Shown in pieces: positions 22,947 through 34,088 of a stretch of DNA of 64,000 nt (the stretch's first letter is position 1; each line of letters starts with the position of its first letter). Source of the stretch: Candidatus Latescibacterota bacterium. Its GTDB lineage: Bacteria; Latescibacterota; UBA2968; UBA8231. The position numbers were made by a program, and so were the translations under genes. Where the stretch lies: assembly GCA_965221775.1 (NCBI GenBank), contig CBDCSU010000005.1, forward strand, positions 96,001 through 160,000, given 5' to 3'. The notes beneath the pieces were generated by a model. That model was not told the origin of the DNA. It saw only the letters and a program-made list of their open reading frames with translations, and made no database searches.

Positions 22947-23888
22947 TCAGTGGTAATGGAGGATGGGACGGATGGCGGCCTCCACCTCGGCGGCCACCTC
23001 CGGCGGCACCCGCGGGTTGAAGGGTCCCCCCTCGCCGCCCTCGATGTCGTCGAAGCCCCCCAGGTGCATCGCCTCGACGACGGCGGAGTAGTTGTAGCGG
23101 CGGTCGTCGCGGAAGCGGATCTCCTCCAGCGGCGCCAGCTCCTCCTCGACCTTCCGGGCCCGCTCGTAGTCGCCGCGGCGCTGGGCGTTGTTGATCTCGT
23201 CCGAGGCCCTGGCGAAGACCACGTTGATCCCCGAGGTGTGGCCCCGGGCCCCCTGCTGCGCCGGTCCCGTGCTGCGGTCGCCGATCCCCCAGATGACGAT
23301 GCCGGCGCCGTCCCGGACCCCTTCGACCATGGGTCTCACGTCGTCGGGGCGGGTGCCGATCTTGACCCCCAGGAAGTGGGGCGAGTCGTTCACCAGGCGC
23401 AGGGCCGTGGGTGCCTGGTTGGACTGGCGCAGGTAGTAGAGGAAGCGGGCTCCGTGCTCGCCTCCGAGCCGCTCGGCGAGGGCCATGTAGCCGTGGTAGA
23501 TGCCCTCCGGGTCGGCCACGCCGGTCAGGGGCATGATCAGGTACGCGTCGGGCGGGTTGGCAAGGCGGCACTGGGCGGCGATGAGCCGCTCGGCGTCGGC
23601 CTGCGGGTTGGGCGCCACGCCGGAGATGAAGATCCCCCGGCCGGCCACGCGGGCAGCGGTGAACTCCATCAGGTTCAACTGCTCGTCCGTGTCGATGTGG
23701 TGGACGAGGCTGGTGCCGGCGATGGAGACCACCCGCGCGCGGTCCCCCTCCAGGGCCTTGGTGCCGAGGAGGTACTCGATGTTCTTCCCGTGGGCCTCGT
23801 AGTCGATCCGCCCGCCCTTGAAGGGGACGATGGGTATGGAGATGACGGTGTCGAGGGCGTCGATCAGATCCTCGGTGCTCAGGGGCAT
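22947..23888 (-). CDS. DapA/NAL family lyase (5-dehydro-4-deoxyglucarate dehydratase-like, divergent)
   Basis: ISIPIVPFKGGRIDYEA, IAGTS, YYLRQ, GVKIG (Schiff-base Lys), GHTSG; ATG 23888. Confidence 0.78.
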   Translation of the reverse strand: MPLSTEDLIDALDTVISIPIVPFKGGRIDYEAHGKNIEYLLGTKALEGDRARVVSIAGTSLVHHIDTDEQLNLMEFTAARVAGRGIFISGVAPNPQADAERLIAAQCRLANPPDAYLIMPLTGVADPEGIYHGYMALAERLGGEHGARFLYYLRQSNQAPTALRLVNDSPHFLGVKIGTRPDDVRPMVEGVRDGAGIVIWGIGDRSTGPAQQGARGHTSGINVVFARASDEINNAQRRGDYERARKVEEELAPLEEIRFRDDRRYNYSAVVEAMHLGGFDDIEGGEGGPFNPRVPPEVAAEVEAAIRPILHYH

Positions 23889-23962
23889 GCAGGGCTCCGG
23901 TGGTTGAGTGTGGCGTTGCTCTGGCGGGTGCGGTAGAGAGTACGGAGGCCCGTCGACGGCCG

Positions 23963-25063
23963 TCAACGATCCACGCCGAAGGGGGACATCTCCCGGCCCG
24001 GGTCGCCGGTGGTGATCCACCGGGCCAGGACCCGCCCCGTGAGGGGCCCCATGAGGACGCCGTTCCTGTAGTGGCCGGTGGCCGCCCACAGGCCCTCGGC
24101 GCCGGCCACGGGGCCGATGAGAGGGCGCCCCCGGGGGGGCTTGGGGCGCAGGCCGGCGCGCTGTTGGCGCAGGACCGGGGGGCGGGCGAGAACCCGCCCG
24201 CACAGGGCCGACAGCTCCTGCCCCGCCGCCGGTGTGGTGCGGGCGTCGAAGCCGGTCTCCTCGACGGTGCCGCCGACGAGCAGGCCTCCCGGGGCCGGCA
24301 GCACGTGCCCACCGGAGCAGCGCAGCACGTGGCGCACGGGACCGCCGGCGAAGAGACAGCTCTGACCCCTCACCGGACGCACCCGCAGCCGCCCCGCCTC
24401 GGGGCCGCCGACGTCCGCGGACCAGGATCCGGCGGCGATCACCGCGGCATCGAAGGTGGCTCGCCTCGAACCGCCGCCCTCGTGCAGGTCGCACTCCACC
24501 CCGCCGGGCGCCGGGCGCAGGCCGCCGACGGCGACGCCGAAGCGGAACCGGGCGCCCCGGCCCTCGGCGGCCCTCTGCAGGACCGATGCCAGAGTCGGCG
24601 GGTCGACCCGCTGATCGCCGGGGTAGAAGGCGGCCCCCGCAACGGCCTCCGACAGGGCGGGCTCCGCCTCCCGCAGCTGGCCCTCGTCGAGCCACTCCCC
24701 CCGGACGCCGCGGGACCGGTTCTCCTCCAGGCGTGAGCGCAGCGCCTCGGCCTCCCCGCCGTCGAGAGCCAGGTCCAGTCCGCCCAGGGGCCGCCAGCCC
24801 GCATCCAGGCCGGTCTCCGCGCGCAACTGCTCGCTCAGCCTCTCGTGCAGGGAGTGGGCGTCGCGATAGAAGGAGGACAACGGATCCTGCCCCCCGGTGG
24901 GCCGGGTGAGGACCCCCAGGGAGGCCCGGGTCGTGGCGGAAGGCGAGGGATCGCGGTCGGCGACGACGACCGAGACGCCCGAACGGGAGAGATAGTAGGC
25001 GACGGAGCGGCCGACGATGCCGGCGCCGGCCACCAGGACGCGGGCTCGGTCCCCGGCGCTCAC
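23963..25063 (-). CDS. FAD-dependent oxidoreductase, D-amino-acid/glycine oxidase (ThiO-like) family
   Basis: VAGAGIVG, AAGSWS, RPVRGQ, AGLRP, ATGHYRNGVLMGP. Confidence 0.88.
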   Translation of the reverse strand: MSAGDRARVLVAGAGIVGRSVAYYLSRSGVSVVVADRDPSPSATTRASLGVLTRPTGGQDPLSSFYRDAHSLHERLSEQLRAETGLDAGWRPLGGLDLALDGGEAEALRSRLEENRSRGVRGEWLDEGQLREAEPALSEAVAGAAFYPGDQRVDPPTLASVLQRAAEGRGARFRFGVAVGGLRPAPGGVECDLHEGGGSRRATFDAAVIAAGSWSADVGGPEAGRLRVRPVRGQSCLFAGGPVRHVLRCSGGHVLPAPGGLLVGGTVEETGFDARTTPAAGQELSALCGRVLARPPVLRQQRAGLRPKPPRGRPLIGPVAGAEGLWAATGHYRNGVLMGPLTGRVLARWITTGDPGREMSPFGVDR

Positions 25064-25081
25064 GACGCCCGCCGGACCGCC

Positions 25082-32687: not shown

Positions 32688-33245
32688 TCAGCCCAGATAG
32701 AGGGAAAGGACCGCTTCGGACGGACGGGCGATGACGTGGCGGGTCAGGAGCTCGCCCACTCGTTCCGCCGCCTCCGCCCCCGAGGTGACCGCCGACTGCA
32801 CGCTGCCCACGTCCCCGGTGACCAGGACCGTCATGTAGCCGCCTCCGATCTCCTGCACCCGGACGACCTCCACCTCCGCCGCCTTCTCCATGGCGTCGGC
32901 GGCCTCGATGACACCCGTCGAGCCGCGGGTTTCCACCAAGCCCAGGGCGCGGACGCCGCTCACCTCCCCGCCTCCCTTCGACGGCAGGATCGCCCCCAGG
33001 TCGGAATGAGGGCGGGGAATCACGTGCACGGCGCGCACCTCCCCGACCTTCGACGCCTCCTGGGCGCCGGCGTCGACGGCCGACTTCACGGCCGCCACGT
33101 CACCGCCGCAGAAGACGGTGGCCATGCCCGAGCCCACCCGGTCCCAGCCCAGCAGCTCCACCTTCGCCGCTTTGGATATCGCGTCTCCCCCGGCGATGAT
33201 GCCCGTGAGCCCCACGGTCTCCAACATGCCAAGAGCCTCTGTCAT
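32688..33245 (-). CDS. BMC shell protein with two tandem PduA-like domains
   Basis: [22 protein letters not shown] and [21 protein letters not shown]. Confidence 0.93.
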
Positions 33246-33532
33246 CTCTCTCCTGCCTGCTCGGAAGCGCTATCGATGTGAACCCGGTCGACTCGCCCGA
33301 TGATGGCGGCGTCGGCCGGAACCCTGTCCTCGAAGGCGTTGCATGCCTCGCGGGAAACCTCGACAACCACCAGGTCTCCCTCCGCCATGGCCTGCCAACC
33401 GACGGCCACCTCGGGATCGCCCACGCCCCGCAGCTCGCCGTCCACGTCCTGCACCAGGTGCAGGCTCTTGTCGCGGTACGGCTCGACCGTCCGTGACAGA
33501 ACCACCTGCCCGAGGACGCGGGCGAGCTTCAC
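33242..33532 (-). CDS. BMC pentamer (BMC-P), divergent
   Basis: [14 protein letters not shown]...[22 protein letters not shown]. Confidence 0.85.
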
Positions 33533-33789
33533 GGCGGCTCTTCGGCGCCGTCTAGGATACCCACGACGACGCTGCGCACGGGAGGGAACTCCAGGCCCGT
33601 CACCGCGCTGCCGGCGGCGCCCGAATCGGCCACCAGGACCCGGCAGCCGGGACCGGCGCCCACGGCGTCGACCGCCAGTTGCAGGGCGGCGGCGCCGTCG
33701 CCGTCGTCGACCACCAGGATCCGGCGATGGTCGAGGGCGGGATGATGCTCGGCGGCCACCACGTTGCCGATGACCCGCGCCACTCTCAT
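33529..33789 (-). CDS. BMC pentamer (BMC-P)
   Basis: MRVARVIGNVVA...AVDAVGAGPG...PPVRSVVVGILD. Confidence 0.88.
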   Translation of the reverse strand: MRVARVIGNVVAAEHHPALDHRRILVVDDGDGAAALQLAVDAVGAGPGCRVLVADSGAAGSAVTGLEFPPVRSVVVGILDGAEEPP

Positions 33790-34088
33790 GCGGCAGCCTG
33801 GACGAATCGACGGCCGCCGGAGGTCACCGAGTCGACGATGCCCACGAGAACGGCATCCACGGGCAGGTCACCCATCCCCGGGCTCTGACGGGCGGAGCTG
33901 CCTTGCACCAGGAGGACGACCTGGCCCTGGCCGGCGCCCACGGAGTCGACGCAGACCAGGTGCCTGCGAGTGGGAAGGGCTTCCTCGCCATCGACGGTGA
34001 GCAACTCCACGAGCAGCAGTCTCCGGCCCTCGAGAGTGGCGACCTTGGCCGAGGCCACCGCCTGCCCCTTGACCCGCGCCAGGACCAT
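33786..34088 (-). CDS. BMC pentamer (BMC-P)
   Basis: MVLARVKGQAVASAK...VCVDSVGAGQGQVVLLVQGSSAR...DAVLVGIVD. Confidence 0.92.
   Translation of the reverse strand: MVLARVKGQAVASAKVATLEGRRLLLVELLTVDGEEALPTRRHLVCVDSVGAGQGQVVLLVQGSSARQSPGMGDLPVDAVLVGIVDSVTSGGRRFVQAAA

Follow-up and report, generated by a model that had tools for sequence, protein, structure and literature searches.

In the main text of the 2021 catalog of bacterial microcompartment (BMC) types by Sutter et al., a class II aldolase family is the signature of PVM, PVM-like and ACI, and this family is said to yield lactaldehyde from fuculose or rhamnulose phosphate in PVM and GRM5 BMCs (PMC8217296). The same main text lists ACI, FRAG1-7, HO, MIC2-7 and MUF2-3 as types without an obvious aldehyde-generating enzyme, mentions Gemmatimonadetes only under FRAG, calls a core without alcohol dehydrogenase an 'incomplete core', and describes five classes of shell protein with one or two domains each. 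It names no pfam00701 enzyme for any type, with 0 occurrences of 'DapA', 'dihydrodipicolinate' and 'pfam00701' (PMC8217296, main text only). Searches of the open-access literature returned no pfam00701, DapA or other enzyme of the dihydrodipicolinate synthase (DHDPS) family as BMC cargo, and nothing relevant on BMCs in Gemmatimonadota or Gemmatimonadetes; the catalog's supplement on all 68 types, which may list such loci, was outside the scope of these searches. Here, we describe a locus in a 64,000-nucleotide stretch of contig CBDCSU010000005.1 (assembly GCA_965221775.1), hereafter the window, where shell genes accompany a DHDPS-family aldolase that we call DapA_EP. The locus (22947-34088, minus strand) is the main part of an aldehyde-oxidising BMC (metabolosome), real and widespread. 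It is best seen as a class II aldolase metabolosome of PVM-like or FRAG-like kind to which a novel module has been added, and not as a type defined by DapA alone.

BMC-H (PF00936) and BMC-P (PF03319) shell genes, whose clustering marks a microcompartment, lie together in the locus. They are accompanied by the two enzymes that mark a metabolosome: a CoA-acylating aldehyde dehydrogenase (AldDH) of the PduP/EutE family with an encapsulation peptide (EP), and a phosphotransacylase (PduL/PTAC) for the recycling of CoA. A first-pass annotation of this DNA had listed four BMC-P, one BMC-H, two two-domain and one four-domain shell proteins, AldDH, PduL, a Cys-rich protein, an aldolase, a DAO-family oxidase and a second DapA-like protein, and the analysis of open reading frames, Pfam and NCBIfam recovered every one of these genes (Table 1). 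This arrangement is no product of chance, as it recurs across 74 species-level loci. Full-length DapA_EP orthologues, 64-94% identical and matching from residue 1 or 2, were found in 18 of 41 close genomes (the genome of the window counted), and the loci fetched from 17 relatives have the gene order of the window, apart from one missing gene encoding a protein of 393 amino acids (aa). At the level of the phylum, PF00936 matches occur in 152 of the 168 species-level genomes and a DapA_EP-type protein (E <= 1e-100) in 81, of which 80 also have PF00936; the exception, G142, is a genome that is 58% complete. The presence and absence of loci were counted from tblastn. One point weighs against a complete metabolosome in this place: no alcohol dehydrogenase for the recycling of NAD+ was found by Pfam among the 15 genes of the locus.

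The aldolase is tied to two shell genes, a tandem BMC gene (T2) and a gene encoding four BMC domains (Quad). Quad is conserved in all 69 loci with enough flank (at least 1.3 kb) and lies there directly upstream of DapA_EP, with T2 upstream of Quad in 69/69. The T2-Quad-DapA_EP adjacency is invariant across families at about 65% identity. In 46 of the 60 loci with enough upstream DNA, DapA_EP has AldDH, PduL and the Cys-rich gene at a distance of no more than 7-9 kb; in the remaining 14, T2-Quad-DapA_EP stand alone. For instance, in genome G040 T2-Quad-DapA_EP lie on one contig, and another contig carries, in this order, H, P, AldDH, P, P, an EP-tagged class II aldolase, ackA and H. The linkage between DapA and the shell genes, for which the first-pass annotation had suggested a check of related metagenome-assembled genomes (MAGs), held there, with the exception of three (G011, G019, G120) that lack DapA_EP.

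From its sequence, DapA_EP is a member of the DHDPS/NAL class I aldolase family. The protein consists of an N-terminal module (residues 1-50, window 26120-26269; hereafter N-module), a variable Pro/Ala-rich linker (residues ~51-73) and a catalytic domain (residues 74-351). Residues S116, T117, E119, Y205 and K232 are invariant among 15 orthologues (alignment A1), and we take them to be the GSTGE, YN.P and G.K motifs of the family (Schiff-base lysine, Tyr/Thr catalysis).

The N-module is shared by DapA_EP and the Cys-rich protein, and both proteins start with it. It is conserved (T10, T34, P35 and D39 are invariant in alignment A4, 20 sequences), gave no match when 20 N-modules were scanned with Pfam, and in a profile search of longer proteins was found only in orthologues of these two proteins among the matches listed (120 of 174). 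In an AlphaFold2 (AF2) model of the Cys-rich protein, it is predicted as strand-helix-strand-helix-strand with a predicted local distance difference test score (pLDDT) of 87-97. The AF2 model of DapA_EP, a low-confidence model from which only the N-terminal secondary structure was used, shows this strand-helix pattern too, with a linker of pLDDT <50 behind it. An ESM Atlas search with the Cys-rich protein gave leads that were all <0.9, including an 'EutQ (fragment)' cluster at 0.77. Because of this lead we compared the N-module with EutQ, whose N-terminal helices H1/H2 (residues about 9-41) are reported to bind the Eut shell, at the EutM-EutL interface, and the rest of whose N-terminus is reported to bind cargo peptides (bioRxiv 10.1101/2024.05.17.594633).

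A second targeting device is found in a distant branch of the same aldolase lineage. Of the 81 genomes with a DapA_EP-type protein, 76 match from the N-terminus and five, belonging to another class (family f14), only from residue 48-72 onward. The aldolases of these five are 50-53% identical to DapA_EP, share its catalytic motifs and lack the N-module. Inspection of three of these loci (L127-L129) showed a C-terminus made of a Gly/Pro-rich linker and an amphipathic peptide, and the aldolase genes of L127 and L128 have a tandem BMC gene as their immediate neighbour. That one enzyme lineage should have two different targeting devices, and adjoining shell genes in most loci, is difficult to account for without encapsulation. 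DapA_EP is thus very probably a cargo of the organelle, where the predicted folded N-module, on its flexible linker, may tether it to the shell or the core.

Several observations speak against this reading. Support for the alignment between the N-module and E. coli EutQ (residues 4-45) is weak, with an hhalign P of 0.0007 and a probability of 26% over 40 columns for one EutQ sequence only, and EutQ is not among the listed profile matches mentioned above. When the Cys-rich model was compared with the PDB by Foldseek, nothing matched at E <= 0.001, so that no solved structure like the N-module came up. The AF2 model of DapA_EP, made from 15 orthologues, is weak overall (mean pLDDT 57.8). Finally, the BMC loci of G011, G019 and G120 have the Cys-rich gene, T2 and Quad followed directly by the DAO gene. 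Since they keep T2 and Quad without DapA_EP, the three-gene module can be divided, and the organelle can do without the aldolase.

To place the locus among the described types, we considered the rest of the genome (G000; 5.36 Mb in six contigs), where a genome-wide profile search gave 11 PF00936 and 4 PF03319 matches. The first-pass annotation had regarded the DapA-family enzyme as the signature of a new type and had reported the absence of the enzymes that define other types, including class II aldolase and acetate kinase. Among the 15 genes of the locus, all accounted for, these enzymes are indeed lacking; elsewhere in the genome, a class II aldolase and an acetate/propionate kinase are present. 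On contig C4 (409454-411388, locus L142), genes for a BMC-H, a 299-aa membrane protein and a 255-aa class II aldolase (pfam00596) stand in a row. This aldolase (L142 1414-2181) is 58% identical to that of the G040 locus, and its C-terminus is amphipathic (99.3-99.6th percentile), as in the EP-tagged aldolases of PVM and PVM-like types, but it lies two genes from a satellite BMC-H, outside the main locus. The adjacency of BMC-H and class II aldolase is also seen from coordinates in G004, G006 and G007. In G040, the orthologue also has the C-terminal peptide and is part of the main locus together with the kinase; in the genome of the window, the acetate/propionate kinase is on yet another contig (C6:920461-921642), so that the two PVM enzymes are not found together in the main locus. 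A second satellite BMC-H, with a C-terminal tail of ~70 residues, is encoded at C6:791900-792127 (locus L004).

Class II aldolases of the C4 kind were found in 144 of the 168 genomes of the phylum. Because this genome has an EP-tagged class II aldolase, of a family so common in the phylum, DapA_EP is probably a second signature enzyme rather than the type-defining one. What stands of the earlier proposal is the tight and wide linkage of this enzyme to shell genes, its targeting devices and its credibility as an aldehyde-generating cargo. With the thresholds applied, neither aldolase query gave a match in G011 or G124, which is a point against the reading with two aldolases.

The genes of the locus are listed in Table 1. 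The window has a GC content of ~70%, and the locus is flanked by IspH and QueC on one side and by an HNH protein and DtxR on the other. The host is a sponge-associated Gemmatimonadota bacterium. Close-relative MAGs with the same locus bear inconsistent NCBI labels (Gemmatimonadota, Candidatus Latescibacterota, Planctomycetota, Handelsmanbacteria, Gemmatimonadaceae, Gemmatimonadetes).

Table 1. Genes of the microcompartment locus in minus-strand order, from 34088 to 22947. Coordinates are those of the window; the cut-off of PF03319 (EutN_CcmL) is 25 bits.
Feature	Coordinates	Strand	Evidence
BMC-P1, vertex/pentamer protein, first of the BMC-P triplet	33786-34088	-	PF03319 85.7 bits; kept in relatives
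BMC-P2	33529-33789	-	PF03319 64.7 bits
BMC-P3	33242-33532	-	PF03319 48.9 bits
BMC-T1 (T1), non-permuted tandem BMC, PduT-like layout	32688-33245	-	PF00936 twice, 162.1 bits
BMC-H, hexamer shell protein	32409-32675	-	PF00936 95.5 bits
AldDH, CoA-acylating	30973-32397	-	NCBIfam PRK15398, 638.3 bits vs cut-off 403
393-aa secreted-looking protein, lineage-specific insertion	29740-30921	-	no Pfam or NCBIfam match
BMC-P4	29246-29575	-	PF03319 77.9 bits
PduL-type phosphotransacylase	28502-29239	-	PF06130 218.7 bits, residues 41-213
Cys-rich protein, 160 aa	28016-28498	-	no family match
BMC-T2 (T2), tandem BMC	27433-28011	-	PF00936 twice, 117.6 bits
Quad, four-domain BMC shell protein	26282-27433	-	four PF00936 stretches, 202.1 bits
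DapA_EP, DHDPS/NAL-family class I aldolase	25082-26269	-	PF00701 204.3 bits vs cut-off 22.1, residues 74-351
DAO-family FAD oxidase, glycine-oxidase-like	23963-25063	-	PF01266 217 bits
DapA2, very divergent DHDPS-like, lysine motif kept	22947-23900	-	PF00701 39.2 bits

One of these genes is outside the conserved system. The 393-aa gene, inserted between AldDH and BMC-P4 and missing from the list of the first-pass annotation, is absent from the loci of all 17 fetched relatives and from all 74 species-level loci. GC falls to 0.644 in its region, the start of its product resembles a signal peptide, and the rest of the genome contains three partial paralogues of the first ~125 residues. A DNA contig from sponge metagenomes (X5) includes the gene, and a contig of a relative from an RNA library (X18) skips it, joining 29563 to 30973.

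The shell proteins are of several kinds. The nearest PDB matches of BMC-H are EutM and PduA. Residues 1-179 of T1 match PduT chains such as 3n79 over their full length, and the PDB matches of T1 and T2 together comprise non-permuted BMC-H and PduT chains only. In the second domain of T2, residues 130-140 depart from the usual Gly-rich pore loop of BMC proteins, with H133, R135 and C138 invariant among 15 orthologues (alignment A5). Given the position of this loop in the alignment, the T2 pore may be basic or metal-binding, and a basic pore would suit an acid substrate. The four BMC domains of Quad are non-permuted and 31-38% identical to one another, and a phrase search of the open-access literature found no BMC proteins with three or four domains. 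A single chain cannot fill a hexagonal tile by itself, and Quad may tether two of them.

The core enzymes could be compared with known relatives. AldDH is nearest to PduP-type enzymes and to those of the fucose/rhamnose BMC of Clostridium phytofermentans (5jfl, 425.5 bits; 4c3s, 417.3 bits), not to the EutE type (3k9d, only 162.8 bits). Both AldDH and PduL had been proposed to carry encapsulation peptides. The proposal stood for AldDH, whose residues ~7-21 are strongly amphipathic (helical moment at the 99.0th percentile of 15-residue windows) and are followed by a Ser/Gly-rich linker. It did not stand in the same way for PduL: by the same measure, the moment of its N-terminal extension is unremarkable (at most 0.34), so that the tag of this enzyme comes down to an extension of 40 residues with a Pro/Gly-rich linker.

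The Cys-rich protein consists of the ~50-residue alpha/beta N-module, a linker, a motif of seven Cys and a C-terminal amphipathic helix, the moment of which is at the 99.7th percentile. The spacing of the seven Cys was read by eye over 38 orthologues; five Cys are invariant and one more is present in at least 90% of the rows of alignment A2. In the AF2 model, residues 1-52 (pLDDT 87-97) and the helix 140-159 (pLDDT 83-89) are well predicted, and the Cys region has a pLDDT <50. The protein may be an adaptor between shell and cargo, a metal or Fe-S protein, or both.

What might DapA_EP cleave? In the non-phosphorylating route of L-fucose degradation, the aldolase acting on 2-keto-3-deoxy-L-fuconate (L-KDF) releases pyruvate and L-lactaldehyde (PMC11199699), and a fucose-induced 'dapA' has been reported in the fucose locus of Campylobacter jejuni (PMC12566272). 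In other genera of the family, a gene of the L-rhamnose mutarotase family (rhaM; PF05336, 53.7 bits) adjoins AldDH in 18 of 74 loci, and an FAH-family gene does so in 26 of 74. Both counts are lower bounds, because the GC3-based gene caller misses or merges genes (e.g., PduL, BMC-P) and frames are affected in a window of 70% GC. These neighbours, the class II aldolase partner, the PduP-like AldDH and the described L-KDF route together favour 6-deoxyhexose acids and L-lactaldehyde. Lactaldehyde and deoxy-sugar-acid chemistry is therefore the best-supported guess, drawn from context, and we hold it with slightly less than even confidence. The first-pass annotation had suggested, as an example, cleavage of a 2-keto-3-deoxy sugar acid to pyruvate and lactaldehyde or glycolaldehyde, and the context favours lactaldehyde; the substrate comes from this context and not from the sequence.

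A number of results pull the other way. DapA_EP scores below every curated NCBIfam equivalog cut-off: TIGR00674 (DapA), 158.2 vs 206.15; PRK04147 (NanA), 160.9 vs 281; TIGR00683, 132.3 vs 382; and the aldolase of 2-keto-3-deoxygluconate (KDG), 120.1 vs 390. As all these cut-offs are missed, the sequence alone is silent on specificity. The best NCBIfam model of the FAH gene, 2,4-didehydro-3-deoxy-L-rhamnonate hydrolase, gives 224.8 bits, far under the cut-off of 500. No sugar dehydrogenase, lactonase or acid-sugar dehydratase was found in this locus. In the genus of the window, moreover, both neighbours are outside the locus: FAH is on C6 and three rhaM genes are elsewhere in the genome, the nearest at 22 kb. 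This nearest rhaM lies in the window (56476-56790, minus strand; PF05336, 101.2 bits), and its neighbours in 50432-61303 encode a hexapeptide transferase, a GFO/IDH/MocA oxidoreductase, an MBL-fold protein, two metallophosphoesterases and an FG-GAP/ASPIC protein, among which we could not make out a clear pathway for rhamnose.

Taking these elements together, we propose a PVM-like or FRAG-like lactaldehyde metabolosome with an added T2-Quad-DapA_EP module for 2-keto-3-deoxy-6-deoxyhexonates, a proposal we consider an even call. The shell would be built from the BMC-P triplet, the fourth BMC-P, BMC-H, the two tandem BMC proteins and the four-domain protein, and would enclose a core of PduP-like acylating AldDH and PduL. 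Two aldehyde-generating aldolases would work in one organelle, the class II enzyme (fuculose/rhamnulose-phosphate-type) and DapA_EP, the latter arriving together with T2 and Quad as shell proteins of its own, in a module of three genes; the Cys-rich protein, with its N-module and C-terminal amphipathic helix, would act as shell-cargo adaptor. The keto-deoxy acid, L-KDF or its rhamnose counterpart 2-keto-3-deoxy-L-rhamnonate (L-KDR), arising from the non-phosphorylative breakdown of L-fucose or L-rhamnose, would enter perhaps through the His/Arg-lined T2 pore and be split by DapA_EP into pyruvate and lactaldehyde. AldDH would then form lactyl-CoA and PduL lactyl-phosphate, which would leave the shell for a cytosolic kinase. 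Of this picture, the sequence data show which genes are present, how they are linked, their families and their targeting features, whereas encapsulation, the substrate and the functions of T2 pore and adaptor are inferred. A bolder version seems possible and rather doubtful to us: T2-Quad-DapA_EP would be a portable cassette that adds a non-phosphorylative entry for keto-deoxy acids together with a DHDPS signature enzyme, a folded alpha/beta encapsulation domain, distantly EutQ-related, that takes the place of the usual amphipathic peptide and is shared with the Cys-rich adaptor, and a Quad that would covalently join two neighbouring pseudohexameric tiles, all of them undescribed for BMCs.

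The alternative that survives best keeps DapA_EP in the organelle and changes its substrate. The enzyme could cleave KDG or 2-keto-3-deoxygalactonate (KDGal), a 2-keto-3-deoxy-pentonate or N-acetylneuraminate, and the aldehyde would then be glyceraldehyde, glycolaldehyde or another sugar aldehyde. We regard this as unlikely. It fits the even mix of solved relatives, since in PDB and NCBIfam comparisons the similarities of DapA_EP are spread evenly over DHDPS, KDG aldolase, YagE (among the better PDB matches, 117.2 bits) and NanA. It also fits the generic sugar-type oxidoreductases that neighbour the gene elsewhere (an SDR protein in L127, zinc-dependent alcohol dehydrogenases (Zn-ADHs) in L128 and L054), and some orthologues are automatically named '2-dehydro-3-deoxy-D-pentonate aldolase' by JGI; such names, however, carry no test. 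Against it, the rhaM and rhamnonate-hydrolase-like neighbours, the class II aldolase partner and the PduP-like (C3-type) AldDH favour 6-deoxyhexoses.

Another explanation starts from the two genes that follow DapA_EP. The DAO protein would make a 2-oxo or imino acid (e.g., from substrates of the hydroxyproline, hydroxyglutamate or glycine type), from which a DHDPS-family enzyme would release glyoxylate or 2-oxoglutarate semialdehyde inside the shell. A DAO-family dehydrogenase and a DHDPS-family deaminase are the hallmark pair of bacterial hydroxyproline catabolism, which counts for this route, as does the position of DAO after DapA_EP in 54 of 71 loci and of DapA2 in 49 of 70. The best PDB matches of DAO are glycine oxidases (e.g., 4ysh, 138.6 bits), and its score with the ThiO model of NCBIfam is 191 bits vs a cut-off of 250.8; the best PDB match of DapA2 is 2ehh, with 42.6 bits. 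However, DapA2 occurs in 62 of the 168 genomes, all of the window's own family (f1) and including all six f1 genomes without a PF00936 match. Two genomes without such a match, G121 and G023 (loci L136, L137), have the order QueC-IspH-DAO-DapA2-HNH-DtxR. As both genes persist at the same site in these BMC-less relatives, DAO and DapA2 belong to the chromosomal backbone and not to the organelle, contrary to the gene set proposed in the first-pass annotation; DAO is probably a mere neighbour. In addition, no DAO lies beside the DapA_EP modules of f4 (14 loci) and f14, and DAO follows Quad where DapA_EP has been lost, as a fixed neighbour would. The amino-acid route thus seems quite improbable. 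Since the loci of G121 and G023 are otherwise syntenic, the BMC block corresponds to an insertion or a deletion between IspH and DAO, and it behaves as a clean gain or loss.

It is likewise very unlikely that DapA_EP is a cytosolic neighbour of the shell genes, with an N-module for oligomerisation or regulation and the class II aldolase as sole signature enzyme: the three relatives with a BMC locus lacking DapA_EP, the far commoner class II aldolase (144/168 vs 81/168 genomes) and the weak likeness of the N-module to EutQ agree with this idea, but it has to face the invariant adjacency to T2 and Quad (69/69), the presence of the same N-module on a Cys-rich protein with a classic C-terminal encapsulation helix, and the f14 homologues with a canonical C-terminal encapsulation peptide, next to a BMC-T gene in 2/3 inspected loci.

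The preferred reading, a lactaldehyde metabolosome with an added aldolase module, can be set beside some variants of the locus. In G015 (L079 1081-3921), the genes that separate the BMC-P triplet from AldDH are a tandem BMC gene, one for a PduS/RnfC-like flavo-iron-sulfur protein (Complex1_51K, Fer4) and a divergent FAH gene; the second of these suggests an electron outlet for NADH in some lineages. In L054 (11249-15169) and 13 similar f4 loci, the lone T2-Quad-DapA_EP is followed by genes for a CehA/McbA-type PHP metallohydrolase, a PhyH dioxygenase, a Zn-ADH and DapF, and lone modules of f4 are preceded by genes for an 806-aa protein and a 1511-aa FtsX/M28 protein. In the split loci, DapA_EP is followed by a 315-aa gene that we considered as a relative of DapA2 and rejected (hhalign probability 0.1); it encodes the PHP metallohydrolase. 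A diaminopimelate-catabolic reading, raised by DapF near DapA_EP in f4, was dropped, as this DapF scores as an ordinary one (214 bits vs a cut-off of 114.65).

The locus was also searched for in sequencing runs. Runs labelled as sponge metagenomes, from several studies, contain 62-85% of its sampled words, and DNA contig X5 extends from 22500 to 31584, with 55 differences. From one study, two metatranscriptomic libraries contain contigs that cover parts of DapA2, DapA_EP, the Cys-rich gene, the 393-aa gene, AldDH, BMC-P1 and IspH with 0-4 differences. Their coverage is partial (12 of 30 bins in X19, 17 of 30 in X20) and the uncovered parts are uninformative; X18 (share 0.09) consists of contigs of a relative, 92-97% similar, and not of this strain. 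Because RNA libraries can contain DNA, these contigs are only a hint of transcription and no proof of it.

DapA_EP is a concrete candidate for the aldehyde-generating enzyme in a large part of the phylum (81 of 168 genomes, with BMC domains in 152 of 168). If our proposal is true, a class I (Schiff-base) aldolase family joins the short list of BMC signature enzymes, and one organelle can take two aldolases feeding one aldehyde. BMC engineering would gain a targeting domain of a new, folded kind and a shell protein of new architecture, and the proposal would also bear on the use of deoxy-sugar polymers by sponge, soil and marine Gemmatimonadota.

How does the locus compare with described systems? 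With the HO type (Haliangium ochraceum) it shares a BMC-P triplet and an AldDH of unknown substrate, and an aldolase is mentioned near two BMC-P genes of that type (PMC8217296, main text). HO loci share BMC-Tdp (CsoS1D/CcmP-like, permuted, double-stacking), whereas T1 and T2 match non-permuted chains and no HO BMC-T chain is among their PDB matches. As for FRAG and ACI, a BMC-P triplet is present here too, and in part of the phylum genes are split over loci (two loci in G040; a main locus and two satellites in this genome). The catalog's main text names Gemmatimonadetes as hosts of FRAG, and ascribes to ACI a BMC-P triplet as well as a class II aldolase bearing a C-terminal EP (PMC8217296). 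In the window's family, in contrast, most genes are gathered in one 11-kb locus with AldDH and PduL, f4 relatives have them split in two, and the hydroxyacid dehydrogenase of ACI was not seen.

The added module is comparable to the 'EUT module' satellites, in which EutABC and EutL are added to HO, SPU3 and SPU6 BMCs (PMC8217296, main text): in both cases, an alternative signature enzyme comes with its own tandem shell protein and can sit apart, but here the enzyme is a DHDPS-type aldolase and the shell proteins are non-permuted tandem and four-domain ones. The N-module resembles the N-terminus of EutQ in its extreme N-terminal position, similar length, flexible linker and aligned T...TP pattern. 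It differs in being predicted as alpha/beta with three short strands and in its fusion to an aldolase or a Cys-rich protein instead of a cupin, and the similarity is marginal (26%).

FucH belongs to the DHDPS/NAL family. Like FucH and E. coli YagE/YjhH, DapA_EP would be a pyruvate-releasing Schiff-base aldolase of keto-deoxy sugar acids, with L-lactaldehyde as the product in the case of FucH (PMC11199699), which was compared by description only; unlike them, it has targeting extensions and a BMC context. The closest systems are the PVM and PVM-like types, with which the locus shares an AldDH and PduL core, an EP-tagged pfam00596 aldolase beside a BMC-H in the genome, a likely lactaldehyde intermediate and the sponge-symbiont setting cited in the catalog (PMC8217296). 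In the genome of the window, by contrast, the class II aldolase is in a satellite and neither the kinase nor an alcohol dehydrogenase is in the locus, while the main locus adds a DHDPS aldolase, a Cys-rich protein, two tandem BMC proteins and Quad, together with a BMC-P triplet and a fourth BMC-P.

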